A stretch of DNA of 64,000 bases from Escherichia coli (GTDB lineage Bacteria > Pseudomonadota > Gammaproteobacteria > Enterobacterales > Enterobacteriaceae): assembly GCF_024223415.1 (NCBI RefSeq), contig NZ_CP100500.1; one strand, 5' to 3'. Every line of letters starts with the position of its first letter. Within the stretch, counting starts at the first letter, position 1. Shown one piece after another: positions 8,369 to 42,275 of this stretch. A program made the translations under genes and the position numbers. Below the pieces are notes generated by a model. That model saw only the letters and a program-made list of their open reading frames with translations, made no database searches and was not told the DNA's origin.

Positions 8369-9703
8369 ATGAATAATGACAATACCGATTACGTGAGTAA
8401 TGAATCAGGGACGCTTTCGCGATTATTTAAACTACCTCAGCATGGGACCACCGTCCGCACAGAATTGATTGCGGGGATGACCACTTTTTTAACCATGGTG
8501 TACATCGTTTTTGTGAACCCGCAAATCCTCGGCGCGGCACAAATGGACCCGAAAGTGGTGTTTGTTACCACCTGTTTGATTGCCGGTATCGGCAGTATTG
8601 CGATGGGGATATTTGCTAACTTACCCGTGGCGCTGGCTCCGGCAATGGGGCTGAACGCCTTCTTTGCCTTCGTGGTCGTGGGGGCGATGGGCATCTCCTG
8701 GCAGACCGGGATGGGCGCAATATTCTGGGGCGCAGTTGGACTATTTTTGCTCACGCTGTTTCGTATCCGGTACTGGATGATCTCCAACATTCCCTTAAGT
8801 TTACGTATTGGTATCACCAGCGGAATTGGATTATTTATCGCCTTAATGGGATTAAAAAATACTGGCGTTATTGTCGCCAATAAAGACACGCTGGTGATGA
8901 TTGGCGATTTAAGTTCTCACGGCGTGTTGTTAGGTATTTTAGGGTTTTTTATTATAACCGTGTTGTCATCACGTCATTTTCATGCCGCGGTGCTGGTTTC
9001 TATTGTGGCGACGTCTTGCTGTGGATTATTTTTCGGTGATGTTCATTTTAGCGGCGTCTATTCCATTCCGCCTGATATTAGCGGCGTCATTGGTGAAGTA
9101 GATTTGAGCGGCGCGTTAACACTTGAACTCGCCGGTATCATTTTCTCCTTTATGCTGATCAACCTATTTGATTCATCAGGAACATTAATTGGTGTAACTG
9201 ATAAAGCGGGCTTAATAGATGGTAACGGTAAATTCCCCAATATGAATAAGGCGCTGTATGTTGATAGCGTCAGTTCGGTGGCGGGTGCGTTTATCGGCAC
9301 CTCGTCTGTTACTGCCTATATTGAAAGTACTTCTGGTGTGGCAGTCGGTGGCCGCACGGGGCTGACTGCGGTTGTGGTTGGCGTTATGTTCCTGTTGGTT
9401 ATGTTCTTCTCACCGCTGGTGGCGATGGTTCCTCCTTACGCAACCGCCGGAGCGTTAATCTTTGTTGGCGTGCTGATGACTTCGAGCCTGGCGCGCGTTA
9501 ACTGGGATGATTTTACCGAATCGGTGCCTGCGTTTATTACCACGGTGATGATGCCCTTTACTTTCTCGATCACCGAAGGGATTGCACTCGGCTTTATGTC
9601 GTACTGCATCATGAAAGTGTGCACCGGGCGCTGGCGCGATCTGAACCTGTGTGTGGTGGTGGTCGCAGCTCTGTTTGCACTGAAGATTATTCTGGTGGAT
9701 TAG
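8369..9703 (+). CDS. adeQ: Adenine permease (NCS2 family)
   Basis: 444-aa multi-TM ORF divergent from ade; nucleobase transporter features; synteny. Confidence 0.87.
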   Translation: MNNDNTDYVSNESGTLSRLFKLPQHGTTVRTELIAGMTTFLTMVYIVFVNPQILGAAQMDPKVVFVTTCLIAGIGSIAMGIFANLPVALAPAMGLNAFFAFVVVGAMGISWQTGMGAIFWGAVGLFLLTLFRIRYWMISNIPLSLRIGITSGIGLFIALMGLKNTGVIVANKDTLVMIGDLSSHGVLLGILGFFIITVLSSRHFHAAVLVSIVATSCCGLFFGDVHFSGVYSIPPDISGVIGEVDLSGALTLELAGIIFSFMLINLFDSSGTLIGVTDKAGLIDGNGKFPNMNKALYVDSVSSVAGAFIGTSSVTAYIESTSGVAVGGRTGLTAVVVGVMFLLVMFFSPLVAMVPPYATAGALIFVGVLMTSSLARVNWDDFTESVPAFITTVMMPFTFSITEGIALGFMSYCIMKVCTGRWRDLNLCVVVVAALFALKIILVD

Positions 9704-33851: not shown

Positions 33852-35336
33852 ATGTCATTCGGTCAGCCTTGTGATGAGTTTCCCCTGAGTTCGCTGCCTC
33901 CACTCATTCGTGATGCCGTTATTGAAGCTCAGCAAATTACGCAGGCTCCCCTTGGGCTTGTGGCAGCGTCTGCCCTGGGCGCTGTTTCACTTGTCTGCCA
34001 GAATCTGATTGATGTCTGCAGACTGAATACACTGCGGGGGCCGGTCTCTCTTTTTTTCCTGACGCTTGCCGAGTCCGGAGAACGAAAAACCGCAGTGGAC
34101 AAATTATTAATGAAGCCCCTGTACCAGCAGGAGATGCAGTTATATTCCAGATACAAAAGTGAACTGGCTGTCTGGAAAAACAAGGAAGAGCTTTTAAAGG
34201 CTCAGAAAAAAGCATTGTTGTCAAAACTGAATAAAGAACTCCGCAAAGGCGCGGATGAGTCAGAAACCCTCAGACAACTGGAAGTACTTCAGAAAAACAG
34301 TGCGGAAGAACCTGTGAGGTATAAATTCATTTTTAATGATGCCACGACTGCGGCAATTAAGAATCAGCTTTGTGGTAAATGGCGTTCAGTTGGTATTATG
34401 TCAGATGAAGCCGGTATTATATTTGATGGATATACCCTGTCTGAGTTGCCTTTTATTAACAAAATGTGGGATGGCTCTGTATTGTCTGTGGACAGAAAGA
34501 ATGAACCCGAACAGATGATTGAAAATGCCAGAATGACGTTATCCCTCATGGTGCAACCCGGTCTTTTTGACCGATATATGGAGCGAAAAGGTTCTGTTGC
34601 CAGGGACAGTGGTTTTCTTGCCCGTTGTCTTATCAGTAAACCTGCAACCACGCAGGGGAAACGCTTTATTAACGGAGCTGTGATTCCGGGAGGATCATTA
34701 ACGGCATTTCATGAACGATTAATGGAACTGGCCAGAGGCAGTATTGAAAAATCCAGTGAGGATGAACGGTATTGTCTGCATTTTTCGCCTGAAGCGCAAA
34801 AAATATTTATTGAGCACTATAATGTTCTGGAGCAGGATTTATCCCCTTCCGGACCCTTAAGCCCGTTTCGGGGACATGTTTCAAAAAAAACAGAAAACAT
34901 TGCAAGAATTGCAGCGTTATTTCAGTATTTCAGCTATGGTGAAGGGAAAATCTCTGCCGATATCATGACGTCTGCTGTCGTAATAAGTTCGTGGTACACA
35001 GATGAATATAAAAAATTATTTGCGTTACCTGATGAATCTGAACTGCAGCAGAAGGACGCCGAGGAGCTGTTCGACTGGCTCATTGAGGAGTGCCGCGGAG
35101 AATGCCCGCCCCGTGTCAGGAAAAATTATATTCTCCAGTGTGGCCCGGGCCGGTTCAGAAACAGGAAAAAACTGAACGCATTGCTGAACATTCTTGAATC
35201 TCAGTTCAGGCTTTCTGTCGTGCCGGAAGGAAAAACCATGTATGTTCTGCTTCCCCAGATAGCCAGTTTAAAGTTGTCTGATGTCTCTGGTATTTTTACC
35301 TCGGGTTATCACTACAATAAGCTGAGAGCGAAGTAA
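33852..35336 (+). CDS. DUF3987 protein (YfjI family)
   Basis: About 495-aa ORF starting MSFGQPCDEFPL; family typical of CP4-57-like elements. Confidence 0.7.
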   Translation: MSFGQPCDEFPLSSLPPLIRDAVIEAQQITQAPLGLVAASALGAVSLVCQNLIDVCRLNTLRGPVSLFFLTLAESGERKTAVDKLLMKPLYQQEMQLYSRYKSELAVWKNKEELLKAQKKALLSKLNKELRKGADESETLRQLEVLQKNSAEEPVRYKFIFNDATTAAIKNQLCGKWRSVGIMSDEAGIIFDGYTLSELPFINKMWDGSVLSVDRKNEPEQMIENARMTLSLMVQPGLFDRYMERKGSVARDSGFLARCLISKPATTQGKRFINGAVIPGGSLTAFHERLMELARGSIEKSSEDERYCLHFSPEAQKIFIEHYNVLEQDLSPSGPLSPFRGHVSKKTENIARIAALFQYFSYGEGKISADIMTSAVVISSWYTDEYKKLFALPDESELQQKDAEELFDWLIEECRGECPPRVRKNYILQCGPGRFRNRKKLNALLNILESQFRLSVVPEGKTMYVLLPQIASLKLSDVSGIFTSGYHYNKLRAK

Positions 35337-35657
35337 CCGGTGAGCAGTTTTTCTCCATTATGCTTCAGACTTAGATGATTGATTATTATGGGGATTTCAT
35401 CACCGATATTCAGATGTATGAATATCGGTGATGAACTAAAGCTCAGGAGCTGCGTGGTGGTGATGAATCAACAGGCATATAACTGATACCCGCCGGTCAG
35501 AAGTTCCAGCCTGCGACTTTCCTGTCTGCGTGCCCGCAGTCCGGCGTTCAGGTGCAGCGTGTGACAGAACGCACGGAGAGCGAAACGGCAGGCAGACAGG
35601 CCGTTCAGTCAGCCCTGGCACCCTGCCCGGATACCAGCTTCCCTGAAACAACTGGCA

Positions 35658-36266
35658 TCAGGTGCGCTTATCGTCAACCGTTGTGCGGTATGCCAGGAGC
35701 ACGTACTGATCCATCAGATCCGTCAGTGCTGCGCTCTGCTTCTGACGGTTGATGATCCATTCCTCCAGCTCTTTTTCTGATTTCCGTTTCAGATTCTCCG
35801 TCCAGTCGTCAAGGCAGTTTCCGGTCATTAAATCAAGCCAGCAAAGCCAGACCAGTTTGAGGCGCAACTCCGTGCCACCAAACTGACGGAAGAGGCTGAT
35901 CAGTTTATTTGCCAGCGAACGCTGCCTCAGACGTTCACATTCAGACAGGAGAATGCCTTCCAGCATCGGATGATGAACCAGCAGATGTTCACTGGTGCAT
36001 AAATTCACTATCAGATCATCATCCAGGGGCGGCGTGGTCCGTTTGTCCGGACCATAAATCAGCCGGTGCAGACTCTGGGGTACGATGGCAATCTCCGGTT
36101 TTTCACCATTGAATGACACCCACCCGGGCGTCAGATTATGGAAGTAGTAGATATTCGGATGACACACGCCCCAGGATACGGCGTGCCGGGTGAAGCCGGT
36201 CAGCCATTTCTGGTAGCTTTCGTGGAGCAGCTCGTAACGGGTCTGATACTGTGGTTTCATTTTCAT
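35658..36266 (-). CDS. Hypothetical protein co-oriented with and downstream of the AlpA-like gene
   Basis: About 200-aa ORF starting MKMKPQYQTRYELL with a GAGGA-like RBS; no assignable family. Confidence 0.5.
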   Translation of the reverse strand: MKMKPQYQTRYELLHESYQKWLTGFTRHAVSWGVCHPNIYYFHNLTPGWVSFNGEKPEIAIVPQSLHRLIYGPDKRTTPPLDDDLIVNLCTSEHLLVHHPMLEGILLSECERLRQRSLANKLISLFRQFGGTELRLKLVWLCWLDLMTGNCLDDWTENLKRKSEKELEEWIINRQKQSAALTDLMDQYVLLAYRTTVDDKRT

Positions 36267-36346
36267 ATTCCTCACGGGGGATAACAGGCAGCAGAACGCC
36301 GCCGGCAGGCCGGAGACTGCGTCTGCTGCAGATGAACGGTTAAGAA

Positions 36347-36553
36347 TTACGGACGGGACTGTGCAATACGCGCCTGCAGCCAGGCTTCCACTTCGCTTTT
36401 CAGCCATCGGGAGCTGCGGCCCATTTTGATGGGCGCAGGAAAGTCACCATCCTTGATGAGTTTGTAAAACCACTTATCGGTCAGGCCGGTCAGTTGAGTG
36501 ATAAATGCCATGTCGACCATCTGGTCATCCATCAGTGAAACTGGGGTGATCAT
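36347..36553 (-). CDS. alpA: AlpA-family prophage transcriptional regulator
   Basis: 69-aa protein with AlpA-type HTH (FITQLTGLTDKWFYKLIKDGDFPAPIKMGRSSRWLKSEVEAWL). Confidence 0.8.
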   Translation of the reverse strand: MITPVSLMDDQMVDMAFITQLTGLTDKWFYKLIKDGDFPAPIKMGRSSRWLKSEVEAWLQARIAQSRP

Positions 36554-37875
36554 GAGAATGTTCCTCCGGATGTTGTTAAACCAGCCGGTGTGGTCATGAA
36601 AACAACGCACCACCTTCACCGGCATAACAACCGGGGAGAAACGTAAAAAATAATCGGGAATGTGACCGCCAGGAGATAAACGGGGAGGTTACGGTGGCTG
36701 AGCCGTACCGGTATGCCGGGTGGTTGTTACGAAACGATGCTTCCGCACGCGTGCGCGATAAAGAAGGGATGATTTTCGTGAGGAAGAGGGGAAAACTGGC
36801 GTTCTGATAATTGCAGAGTTATTTACGGGGCGGTTACGATGGGGCAGACCGTGTCCGGTGGGCAGGCGACAGGTATCACCGATGGGATAAGACTGTCTGA
36901 TTGGTATTATAAATATATAAGAGAGATCAAACACATGAGATCAAATACATGAGTTCATATATGTGAAATAAACACGGTGAGTGTGATCAGTGGGCATGAT
37001 GAGAACGCAGTAGCAACAGACTGCGCTATCCCTGATAGCTGGCGTATAACCCGCGTATATAAAACGTATCTGCAATGTACGTGAACAGAGTGCATTAAGC
37101 ATCCGTCTGAGCGGTAAACATATCCGACCTGGTGAGTGACAGTCTGAGAGACCGGTTAAGTGGTGGCTCGGGAGTAATGAGTTTGGGGTGGGTACCAGAA
37201 TGCCAGTCTGGCGGTATGCTGACAGTATCACGTTAATTGCAGCATAAAGTGATGAGAGGCTAATGGAAGTTAAAACCAAAGCAGTTCCGTCGTTGTTCAT
37301 CCCGGGAGACGCTGGAAAAAGTGATTTCCCACACGCGTTATAAACTTACCTCTGCGGAACTGGAAGCCTTCAACTCTGTGGTTGATCACTGGCTGGCAGA
37401 ACTGACAATGAACAAGCTTTACGATCGTGTTCCCGCTTCAGTCTGGAAATATGTCATCTGAGCGTTCGGTAATCACAACTGCATCGCGCCAGGTGTTATC
37501 CGCTTTGTGATTCTTATTGGCTCTTCTCAGGTTATTAAAAGCTGAATATGTTCCTGTTGTCGGGAACCAGGATAATACCGGGAACGTTAAGCGGTATAGC
37601 GACAACAAAGAATTCGAAATCAAAAGGGAATGGTGCCGGAGGCGTGGGCGGTAATGGGCTGATTTTCAGGTATTACCGGCTTACAGCGTGTGGTTGATAT
37701 TGAGGGGCTGTGAGTTTCACGTATTTGTCAGAAACCCAGACGAGTTTTCCTGTATGGGACGAAATAAGGCAGCGGCAATACATGGAAAAATTTAATATGG
37801 TATGAAGGAGAACCTGTCGGTTACGCTTAATATAACCGGTACACTGTCAGCTCAGGGGATACATGAACCGTTATC

Positions 37876-38076
37876 TCACCAGCTACACAGTATATACACA
37901 CTGACGCTGACAGTAGTCAGCAGGACCACAATAATCAGTGCCAGCAGTATGGTAACGATACGGTCTGTATTCCGGTAATAGCCGAAGGGGTCGACAGAAC
38001 CACAATACGGGCAACACACAGTATTATGAGTAATCGCGTTTCCACAGTCCCAGCACTTCTTTTTGCGTATCACCAT
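37876..38076 (-). CDS. Small zinc-ribbon membrane protein (hypothetical)
   Basis: 66-aa ORF with CWDCG...CCPYCG followed by one TM helix. Confidence 0.4.
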   Translation of the reverse strand: MVIRKKKCWDCGNAITHNTVCCPYCGSVDPFGYYRNTDRIVTILLALIIVVLLTTVSVSVYILCSW

Positions 38077-38281
38077 AACTCCCTCCTCACAGCCTTACCC
38101 GTAACCGGTTTTTTTACATTAAAAAAACAACGCTGAAAATTCAACCGTCAGTCCGGAGACGACCGTTCGGGTTATCTCAGAGTGCCTGAGATATTGCCTG
38201 GTTGGAGATCACTTCAGGGACTCTGCGCATTTTTTACGGCGTGGTTAATCCGTATGAACGAAACCATACGGAGATTTAACC

Positions 38282-38851
38282 ATGACCTACAAATACAACC
38301 CCTTCTGGCAGCAACGTATTCGTGAGACGGTGCGGCACGCACTGGATGTTCATCCCCGTCTGACGGCATTGCGGGGTGATCTGCGTCTCCCGGATGTACC
38401 GGCAGCAACGGACGCGGCTGTGATATCCCGCTTCATCAATGCCCTGAAAGCCCGAATCGACGCTTACCAGAAACGTAAGCATCGGGAAGGTAAACGCGTG
38501 CATTCCTCGACCCTGCATTACGCCTGGGCCCGGGAGTTCGGGGAGCTTAAAGGCAAAAAACACTATCACCTGCTGCTGCTGGTCAACCGGGATACCTGGT
38601 GTCGTGCCGGCGATTACCGCGCTCCGGGGTCACTGGCCGGAATGATTAAACAGGCGTGGTGCAGTGCCCTGGGAGTGGATGTCGGGTGCCATGCCACGCT
38701 GGTGCATTTTCCGGCCTGGCCGGCGGTGTGGCTGGAACGCGATGATGACACTGGCTTTCAGCAGGTGCTGGAACGTGCTGGCTATCTGGCGAAGGAGCAT
38801 ACCAAAGCTCGCGGCACCGGTGAGCGCAACTTTGGCTGCAGTCGTGGCTGA
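38282..38851 (+). CDS. YagK/YfjJ-family protein (inovirus Gp2-type)
   Basis: 189-aa ORF starting MTYKYNPFWQQRIRETV, typical of the family. Confidence 0.7.
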   Translation: MTYKYNPFWQQRIRETVRHALDVHPRLTALRGDLRLPDVPAATDAAVISRFINALKARIDAYQKRKHREGKRVHSSTLHYAWAREFGELKGKKHYHLLLLVNRDTWCRAGDYRAPGSLAGMIKQAWCSALGVDVGCHATLVHFPAWPAVWLERDDDTGFQQVLERAGYLAKEHTKARGTGERNFGCSRG

Positions 38852-39011
38852 GCCCGACAGACGACTTATCTGACCTTAGTGTGATGACGCGTTCACAGCG
38901 ACCACACTGATTTTCCCTTCTGAGACTGAACTGAAAACCGCTATTCACACCTGACCACGCTGCCCGTACCGGGACGGCTGTTGCCTGCGTGTCGTCTGGC
39001 GGCTGAGGAAT

Positions 39012-39401
39012 ATGACGATGTACGCAAAATCCTTTCTCGCACTTGATGGCAACGGGCGTCTGACTGGTGCCCGTACCGCACAGACTGCACCTTACGATCG
39101 CTACACTTGCCACCTTTGCGGCAGTGCACTCAGATACCACCCGCAATACGACACTGAACGTCCCTGGTTTGAACACACTGACGACGGGCTGACTAAGCAC
39201 GGTCATGAGTGCCCTTATGTCAGACCGGAACGCAGGGAGGTACGCTTGATTAAGCGTCTGCAGCAATTCGTACCGGATGCCTTACCCGTGGTGCGTAAAG
39301 CCAGCTGGCACTGCAGACAATGTCACCACGATTATTATGGGGAGCGGTACTGCACTCACTGCCATACAGGGCACTTCAGTGAGGAGGGAGTGGCTGAATG
39401 A
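39012..39401 (+). CDS. Cysteine-rich hypothetical protein A (two zinc-ribbon-like CxxC pairs plus WFEH motif)
   Basis: 129-aa ORF; clear paralog of the next ORF; motifs YTCHLCG...WFEH...WHCRQC...YCTHCHTG. Confidence 0.55.
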   Translation: MTMYAKSFLALDGNGRLTGARTAQTAPYDRYTCHLCGSALRYHPQYDTERPWFEHTDDGLTKHGHECPYVRPERREVRLIKRLQQFVPDALPVVRKASWHCRQCHHDYYGERYCTHCHTGHFSEEGVAE

Positions 39402-39823
39402 ACGGTATAAAAACGGGGCTGGGGATCACGCCGGGTGAACACATTATCAGTGCGGCCTCAGCCCTTAGCAGAAATATCAGGCATTGTTTCTGCCTTTCCT
39501 GTCGTGGTCGGTTGATTTTGCAGACAGATGCTCAGGGGGCGTGGTTTGAGCACGATTTACATGCCCTGAGCGCGCAACAGAAGGCGGCCTGCGTGGTGCT
39601 GAATCCGGAAAAGTCCCACCCTTACATTGAGGATATGGCGATGTTTCTATCGCCATTACCGGTCGTGCTGGAGTGGCATTGTGTGATGTGCGGGCAGCAT
39701 TTTCCCGGGAAAAAGTTCTGCGAAGCCTGTGGCACGGGGATCTATTCCAGAGCAACATGTACGAAGTCTGTTTACAGCTACCAGCCAGACTTGTTTCAGG
39801 ACTGCGGAGGTGCGAGTACTTAA
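39398..39823 (+). CDS. Cysteine-rich hypothetical protein B (paralog of A, translationally coupled)
   Basis: 141-aa ORF starting in the ATGA overlap with ORF A; motifs CFCLSC...WFEH...LPVV..WHCVMC...FCEACGTG. Confidence 0.55.
   Translation: MNGIKTGLGITPGEHIISAASALSRNIRHCFCLSCRGRLILQTDAQGAWFEHDLHALSAQQKAACVVLNPEKSHPYIEDMAMFLSPLPVVLEWHCVMCGQHFPGKKFCEACGTGIYSRATCTKSVYSYQPDLFQDCGGAST

Positions 39824-42275
<2,452 letters not shown>

Follow-up and report, generated by a model that had tools for sequence, protein, structure and literature searches.

In this study, the 1,322-bp segment at positions 36554-37875 of the window (the whole 64,000-nucleotide stretch of an Escherichia coli chromosome that was analyzed) was found to comprise, very likely, a divergent control region and an hha2-type gene broken by a 14-bp deletion, a pseudogene within a decaying island. 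The segment is 100% identical in many complete genomes, and part of it is matched at 9,165 places in 3,694 of 5,426 complete genomes. Its left boundary is an alpA-like gene for an HTH regulator on the minus strand (36347-36553; Pfam Phage_AlpA PF05930, E=1.8e-8), which RefSeq lists as a 68-aa helix-turn-helix regulator. Its right boundary is a small Zn-ribbon/membrane ORF, also on the minus strand (37876-38076), which gives weak Zn_ribbon Pfam matches below the cut-off and is a hypothetical protein in RefSeq. An in-frame upstream extension of the alpA-like gene to 36625 is not kept as coding, and other copies show single-base indels there. Only short ORFs were listed between 36554 and 37875, the longest being 119 aa on the minus strand. 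On either strand of the segment, no ORF of 30 aa or more matched Pfam or NCBIfam except the Hha remnant described below. A "frameshifted hypothetical protein" that RefSeq places in one other copy (L013:1535-1826) was rejected as a gene; three-frame translation of five copies showed that its frames are not conserved.

Judged by its sequence, the broken gene is a Hha/YmoA-family paralogue of the hha2 type. The plus-strand frame 37264-37461, which consists of 65 codons and a stop and has no upstream start codon, matched Pfam HHA (PF05321) with 89.1 bits against a cut-off of 25 (E=2.2e-25; profile positions 3-57 of 57). The same frame matched the PDB entries of Hha (1JW2/2MW2; E=6.6e-21) and those of Salmonella Hha (4ICG) and YmoA (2K5S), both at E~1e-20. 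Canonical Hha, YmoA and YdgT (Cnu), represented by 1JW2, 2MW2, 4ICG, 2K5S and 2JQT, belong to the same Pfam family as the window gene and have its four-helix fold. Glu25, Ala41, Asp48 and the C-terminal helix of Hha have been reported to contact H-NS (PMC11825884). The Hha frame of the window gene encodes Glu23, Asp46 and the C-terminal helix as equivalents of these contacts; its position 39 is Glu, as in YmoA, where Hha has Ala41. Unlike canonical Hha, the window gene is island-borne and truncated and has no tomB/ymoB-like upstream partner. The 709 bp upstream of hha contain no ORF with a Pfam or NCBIfam match and no tomB/ybaJ-family gene, indicating that this is not the canonical hha-tomB locus.

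A protein search recovered intact 70-aa relatives (P0005, P0008 and P0009), and alignment with the intact alleles located the lesion: AAGACTGGCTGTAT is missing at the junction 37281..37282 on the plus strand. This 14-bp deletion lies inside codon 7, takes out codons 7-11 (helix 1) and shifts the frame. The native start now opens a 26-codon frameshifted ORF (37263-37343, plus strand; MEVKTKAVPSLFIPGDAGKSDFPHAL) in the ORF listing; its first 6 codons (MEVKTK) are identical to those of intact hha2, and the remaining residues are out-of-frame read-through. The native-ATG frame ends at 37341-37343 and the Hha frame at 37459-37461. A Shine-Dalgarno-like GAGAGG for the native ATG can be read at 37254-37259 on the plus strand and is kept in the intact alleles. 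In the Hha frame, a TAA stop at 37261-37263 overlaps the native ATG (cTAATGg), no ATG start is available, and the only candidates are a CTG at 37312 and a GTG at 37321. Between the two begins an A5 run (37316-37320, plus strand), where other alleles have regained the frame by losing one A. A full-length ORF, which would have a start codon, about 67-72 aa and all four helices, is nowhere present in the locus. Its longest callable ORF is 46-49 aa and begins inside helix 2. A frame-disrupting lesion is thus present relative to intact syntenic homologs, as in a frameshifted pseudogene. Apart from these lesions, the Hha frame runs through 65 codons without a stop, an observation counter to a loss of function.

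These results agree in outline with an earlier sequence-only reading of the segment, which described a gene-poor stretch with short frames only and took two plus-strand fragments to be one frameshifted gene. The ORF listing and the single family match bear out the former, and the Pfam HHA match and the 14-bp gap relative to intact alleles bear out the latter. Its view of a decayed accessory gene is supported by the intact 70-aa version on related islands and the deletion in the window allele. Its proposed check, a search of related islands for an intact version, was positive, yielding P0005, P0008, P0009 and the hha2 copy of EAEC 042 (L008:48505-48717). It erred in the details of the break. 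The lesion is not at about 37340 but at 37281|37282, approximately 60 nt upstream, inside codon 7; the fragments do not abut at 37340/37345, since the Hha frame is open from 37264 and the two frames overlap by approximately 80 nt. Joining the fragments does not give the ancestral protein either, as the first fragment is ancestral only in its initial six or seven residues (MEVKTK).

We infer that the remnant has lost its function, and on sequence grounds it is likely non-functional. The intact 70-aa protein would be a small four-helix partner of the silencer H-NS that in EAEC 042 helps to silence an ag43 allele and irmA_4509. The deletion at 37281|37282 is predicted to remove most of helix 1 and to shift the frame, with the consequence that ribosomes starting from the native Shine-Dalgarno and ATG (37254-37259 and 37263) would make a 26-residue nonsense peptide and stop at 37341-37343. 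The Hha frame downstream is open, but the TAA shuts it off on its upstream side and it has no ATG. At best, initiation at CTG 37312 or GTG 37321 may give a fragment of 46-49 aa, in which the beginning of helix 2 would be missing along with helix 1 and the conserved Cys. When the repaired protein was modeled with AlphaFold from 36 aligned sequences (mean pLDDT 78), helices were placed at residues 6-14, 19-30, 35-54 and 63-67; according to this model, the deletion strikes helix 1, and an internally initiated product would begin inside helix 2 (residues 19-30). Cys16, Glu23, Asp46 and the C-terminal VWKYV are all encoded in the Hha frame; all the possible starts lie downstream of Cys16, and the GTG also lies downstream of Glu23. 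The window allele also carries A44V and R48W, at positions where conservation among 36 full-length family members is 90% or more. Its pN/pS to the nearest alleles is 0.32-0.42, compared with 0.00-0.08 between intact alleles, a sign of relaxed constraint, albeit from small counts. RefSeq annotates 37312-37461 (plus strand; alternative GTG at 37321) as a 49-aa protein with a CTG start, WP_052318419.1, labeled "Hha/YmoA family nucleoid-associated regulatory protein" and not pseudogene. The score of this 49-aa protein against NCBIfam Hha (NF008191) is 75 bits, where the cut-off is 90.

The gene order around the remnant is Ag43, a GTPase, a hypothetical protein of 190-200 aa, AlpA-like, hha and an inovirus-Gp2/YagK-YfjJ-like gene, with YfjI also in the module. 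The same order was found in EAEC 042 and in six other loci. The remnant's position between the alpA-like gene and the YagK/YfjJ-like gene in an Ag43-yeeR-irmA island, together with the N-terminus MEVKTK, places it in the hha2 type. The island is CP4-44-like and carries Ag43. It adjoins setC-yicL-nlpA, and the closest match is isolate F404. Strain ECCRA-119 was considered as an equivalent of the whole window and was rejected, as it differs outside the local region. The agn43 gene of the same island is itself broken, by an IS66/IS3 composite insertion (27203-31085) and a 2-bp deletion.

The frequency of the lesion was investigated with junction-specific queries in 5,426 complete genomes; such short queries miss variants with nearby SNPs, and all counts are therefore lower bounds. 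The intact junction was found at 733 places in 693 genomes and the deleted junction of the window type at 418 places in 396 genomes. The same 14-bp deletion occurs on two further haplotypes: one that keeps the TAA (L012 type, 500 places) and one in which the TAA has become GAA (L006 type, about 1,160-1,400 places). Deleted alleles thus occupy at least 2,300 places against 733 for intact ones in complete E. coli genomes, a ratio of roughly 3:1 from lower bounds. In L006/L007-type alleles, the GAA allows an upstream TTG to serve as the start of a 74-aa ORF (MQHKVTRDEWKLKPEQFRRC...), named hha in RefSeq. In others, a second 1-nt deletion restores the frame and gives 65-aa chimeras (L024, L023, P0027, P0058 and P0077). 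L024, for example, combines the 14-bp deletion with a shortening of A5 to A4 and encodes 65 aa, and L023 regained the frame through the loss of a T; P0018, P0056 and P0089 suggest further frame-restoring sites. The A5 run has also been a site of damage, for L015 is an intact allele broken there. Many alleles in the protein list have additional C-terminal frameshifts. Selection for frame restoration was considered as an account of this series; however, distinct further-disrupting lesions in the protein list are at least as many as frame-restoring ones, and neutral decay is sufficient.

The alignment showed neither microhomology nor a repeat at the 14-bp deletion junction. A single origin is therefore more likely than recurrent deletion through microhomology, and the simplest account is that the deletion arose once and spread by exchange between island copies, several of which are present per genome. 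Counter to the single-origin account, the 3' half of the window allele has a pS of 0.09 to an intact allele, as against 0.21 to other deleted alleles.

Two relatives of the gene, hha2 (EC042_4516) and hha3, have been described in EAEC strain 042 (Prieto et al. 2016, PMC4864382). Linkage of hha2 to the flu-yeeR-irmA cluster has been reported (PMC6480617); hha, hha2 and hha3 were all reported as modulators of one ag43 allele, EC042_2242 (PMC4864382), and a hha hha2 double mutant showed higher expression of the neighboring irmA_4509 (PMC9431211). The intact 70-aa hha2 copy of EAEC 042 (L008:48505-48717) lies in the same module as the window allele. The two share the island module, the gene order, the first 6 codons and the Shine-Dalgarno, and both adjoin flu-yeeR-irmA. 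Over 59 shared codons, their amino-acid identity is ~93%. The window allele differs from hha2 of 042 by A44V and R48W and by the loss of 14 bp in codons 7-11, which rules out synthesis of the 70-aa protein.

The hha3 gene of 042 (EC042_4796; L022:28133-28309, 58 aa, GTG start) resembles the window allele in coming from the 14-bp-deleted lineage and in lacking the native helix 1. From GGAGACGC onward, it is identical to L023, an allele with the 14-bp deletion and a further -1 deletion; published hha3 is therefore a derivative of the deleted lineage. Whereas hha3 regained an ORF through a 1-nt deletion and has a new 5' end, the window allele has neither repair. As this 58-aa protein without helix 1 is reported to modulate an ag43 allele, truncated forms may keep activity, which runs counter to a loss of function.

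Outside E. coli, the closest relative found was P0019, a plasmid Hha of 69 aa from Salmonella that is 78% identical and whose N-terminus reads MAKTKQEWLYQLRRC. Its locus contains type IV secretion/pilus and exclusion genes, and it is homologous to the window in the coding part only. The same holds for other hha loci of Salmonella, Klebsiella and others, which lie in unrelated contexts and have only the coding part in common. The N-terminus of intact hha2-type proteins matches those of plasmid and Yersinia Hha. This N-terminus, shared with the Salmonella plasmid and Yersinia proteins, indicates that the 70-aa form is ancestral.

The remaining ~1.1 kb of the segment is non-coding. It probably holds conserved leaders or promoters of the alpA-like gene and of hha on either side of an AT-rich core, and a variable spacer follows. 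Immediately upstream of the alpA-like gene, the conserved leader and Shine-Dalgarno at 36554-36653 (minus strand) show a column conservation of 0.95-0.98 in 8 island copies, and a GGAGGAA lies 7-8 nt upstream of the alpA-like ATG on the minus strand. Upstream of hha, a conserved non-coding region at 37004-37262 (plus strand; conservation 0.94-0.98) is a probable promoter or 5' leader. Its conservation resembles that of the hha coding part in the 8 island copies (0.94-0.99). The strong conservation of both blocks makes a regulatory role probable for the 100 bp ahead of the alpA-like gene and for the 260 bp ahead of hha, as we infer from the alignments. Between them, at 36882-36975, lies the AT-rich core of the divergent intergenic region (GC 0.39-0.44), which has weak promoter-like hexamers on both strands. 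A standard scan within the segment found no consensus sigma-70 promoter and no terminator. A relaxed scan gave two candidates only, each with 8/12 matches, one on the plus strand at 36882-36910 (ATGGGA-17-TATTAT with TG) and one on the minus strand at 36941-36912. The sequence-only reading had suggested that the segment may hold the promoter of the alpA operon; the conservation of the 100 bp upstream (95-98% in 8 copies) makes this plausible, but no consensus sigma-70 promoter supports it and the candidates at 36882-36941 are weak. On the simplest reading, the AT-rich core would hold divergent promoters, followed by long conserved leaders.

The core also contains a 14-nt tandem repeat (GAGATCAAAYACAT x2; 36923-36950; repeat search, family D3) with a GATC site in each unit, the copy number of which varies from 1 to 3 among island copies. 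Three lesions in the upstream block set the window apart from the seven other aligned copies: 14 bp are deleted at 37024|37025, an ATG is duplicated (3 bp) near 36996, and 2 bp are missing near 37210. Downstream, the spacer between the converging hha remnant and Zn-ribbon ORF (37462-37875) is indel-rich and poorly conserved (0.41-0.92 over 37454-37900). It contains no terminator and no ORF with a family match, and its fold z-scores were -1.3 and -0.5. Within it, a 32-nt block, AACAAAGAATTCGAAATCAAAAGGGAATGGTG (37604-37635), is exact in 11 fetched loci, including diverged copies; in the one frame that is open, every flanking difference is non-synonymous. Folding of the upstream block 37004-37262 on both strands was not better than that of shuffled sequence (z-scores -0.38 and -0.47). 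No Rfam 15 covariance model matched 34000-40000 at E<=1, and the only Rfam match in the 64-kb window is an IS102 RNA at 31398-31634.

Several other explanations of the segment were weighed against the broken-gene reading. It is unlikely, though not negligibly so, that the remnant works as a shortened Hha that starts internally at CTG 37312 or GTG 37321 and binds H-NS with 46-49 aa (half of helix 2, plus helices 3 and 4). In its favor, the part that is retained includes the H-NS contact residues, no stop interrupts the frame before the natural one, the RefSeq CDS call implies a product, and a GGGAG lies 12 nt upstream of the GTG; moreover, the reported activity of 58-aa hha3 on EC042_2242 comes from a protein that misses the same N-terminal part. 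However, CTG is a poor start codon and lies only 3 nt from the GGGAG, A44V and R48W fall on the highly conserved positions, and the remnant stays under the NCBIfam cut-off. The missing part includes helix 1 and Cys16, the counterpart of Cys18 in Hha, where the C18E replacement destroys the tertiary structure (PMC5155140), and neutral decay is suggested by the many alleles in the database that are degraded further. That the contact equivalents all lie within the retained part is in any case an observation counter to a loss of function. A broader version of this explanation appears distinctly improbable: the 14-bp deletion would have founded a lineage of N-terminally remodeled short Hha proteins (the 74-aa TTG form, the 65-aa chimeras via at least five 1-nt deletions, and 58-aa hha3), kept because the C-terminal ~47 residues alone modulate H-NS, with the window allele as an unrepaired intermediate expressed at a low level via internal initiation or A5 slippage.

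Recoding at GGA-AAA-A (37313-37320), by a +1 ribosomal slip or transcriptional slippage, could in principle give a low level of a 66-aa chimera, and the A5 run lets tRNA-Lys re-pair at +1. Alleles that lack one base here or nearby encode just such 65-aa chimeras. We regard this as very improbable. Five As are short for efficient slippage, folding found no stimulatory structure, and the run, an in-frame GAA AAA in intact alleles, therefore has an origin other than as a shift site. Even the chimera would be without helix 1 and Glu23. The population data do not show a programmed frameshift site either, as deleted alleles were repaired by various mutations and not kept as shift sites. There is only a slim chance that the key content of the segment is a non-coding RNA or a cis-regulatory leader, in the 260 bp upstream of hha or the 32-nt downstream block. 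The upstream region 37004-37262 is conserved at 94-98%, level with coding sequence, and the 32-nt block is exact in 11 loci with diverged flanks. Against this stand the absence of an Rfam match at E<=1, fold z-scores of -0.4 to -1.3, the coding part being all that distant hha genes on plasmids and in other genera have in common, and the indels that the window copy itself carries within the conserved block; with differences of only 2-6%, the copies are too similar for a covariation test. Finally, a sequencing or assembly error in a really intact gene is hardly credible: homopolymer errors do not produce a 14-bp gap, 396 independent complete genomes have the very same junction, and two other haplotypes carry the deletion as well.

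In sum, nothing here is new in kind: the gene belongs to a known family (hha2/hha3), the island module is known, and the frameshifted allele is common and already in RefSeq as a 49-aa stump. The biological surprise is small: the broken gene is a paralogue, carried on an island, of a known H-NS co-regulator, and the Ag43 gene of that island is broken too. The practical value lies in annotation and typing, as RefSeq names the 49-aa stump as a protein. Published hha2/hha3 PCR primers have been proposed as a virulence indicator. These primers all anneal 3' of the lesion, and those for hha2 have 3 and 2 mismatches to the window allele; presence/absence typing therefore cannot separate working from broken genes. 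The useful by-products for typing are that deleted alleles dominate, that hha3 descends from deleted alleles, and that the primers lie 3' of the lesion.

The published hha3 of EAEC 042 (L022:28133-28309 in the locus fetched from that genome) is a GTG-start ORF of 58 aa. Its 5' part is unrelated to that of hha2, and its 3' part is identical to that of L023, a comparison locus with the 14-bp-deleted hha allele whose frame is restored by a second, 1-nt deletion. The native helix 1 is therefore absent from hha3. Typing primers for both hha2 and hha3 are published in the supplement of PMC4864382. Primer sites are present in the window at 37345-37364, 37430-37451 and 37439-37460, with 2-3 mismatches to the forward primer for hha2 and to the reverse primers of both genes; no window site was found for the hha3 forward primer at ≤3 mismatches. 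Since the hha2/hha3 primers anneal downstream of the 14-bp deletion, intact and broken alleles are inseparable by PCR typing.

Upstream of hha, in a region that is otherwise conserved, the window allele carries three indels that are found in none of the 7 other aligned copies: a 3-bp ATG duplication at about 36996, a second 14-bp deletion at 37024-37025, and a 2-bp deletion at about 37210. Some copies also contain an insertion of ~184 bp inside this conserved region (L006:3700-3890, and likewise in L007; the equivalent window position is 37143). It is flanked by a direct CTGAGAG repeat and may be a small mobile element. Non-coding DNA on either side of hha contains two further features. The 14-nt unit GAGATCAAAYACAT is tandemly repeated at 36923-36950, each unit with a Dam GATC site; the number of units varies between island copies (1, 2 or 3), and GATC is missing from the first unit in one copy. 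Downstream, the 32-nt block AACAAAGAATTCGAAATCAAAAGGGAATGGTG (37604-37635) is exactly conserved across 11 loci; the spacer around it is indel-rich, yet the block itself is unchanged. This block shows no coding behaviour.

In the same island, the gene for the Ag43 adhesin (24377-31380, minus strand) is inactivated two times over. It is interrupted by a 3.9-kb composite insertion (27203-31085), within which lie a transposase gene of the IS66 family (27240-28778) and, at 30332-31054, an integrase-core ORF of IS3 type. The second lesion is a 2-bp deletion by comparison with isolate F404, in which agn43 is intact. Between agn43 and the GTPase gene lies an IS102 sRNA (RF00124; 31398-31634, minus strand; 73 bits), the only family in the 64-kb window to pass its own Rfam gathering score.

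In a different strain from that of the window, ECCRA-119 (L001/L010), the same island module is located at tRNA-Phe, adjoining yqgA/speC, and the genes that come after it are an anti-phage set (DUF499, DUF3780, DUF1156 and PLD-like). Thus, the module is found at differing chromosomal sites, and its cargo differs.
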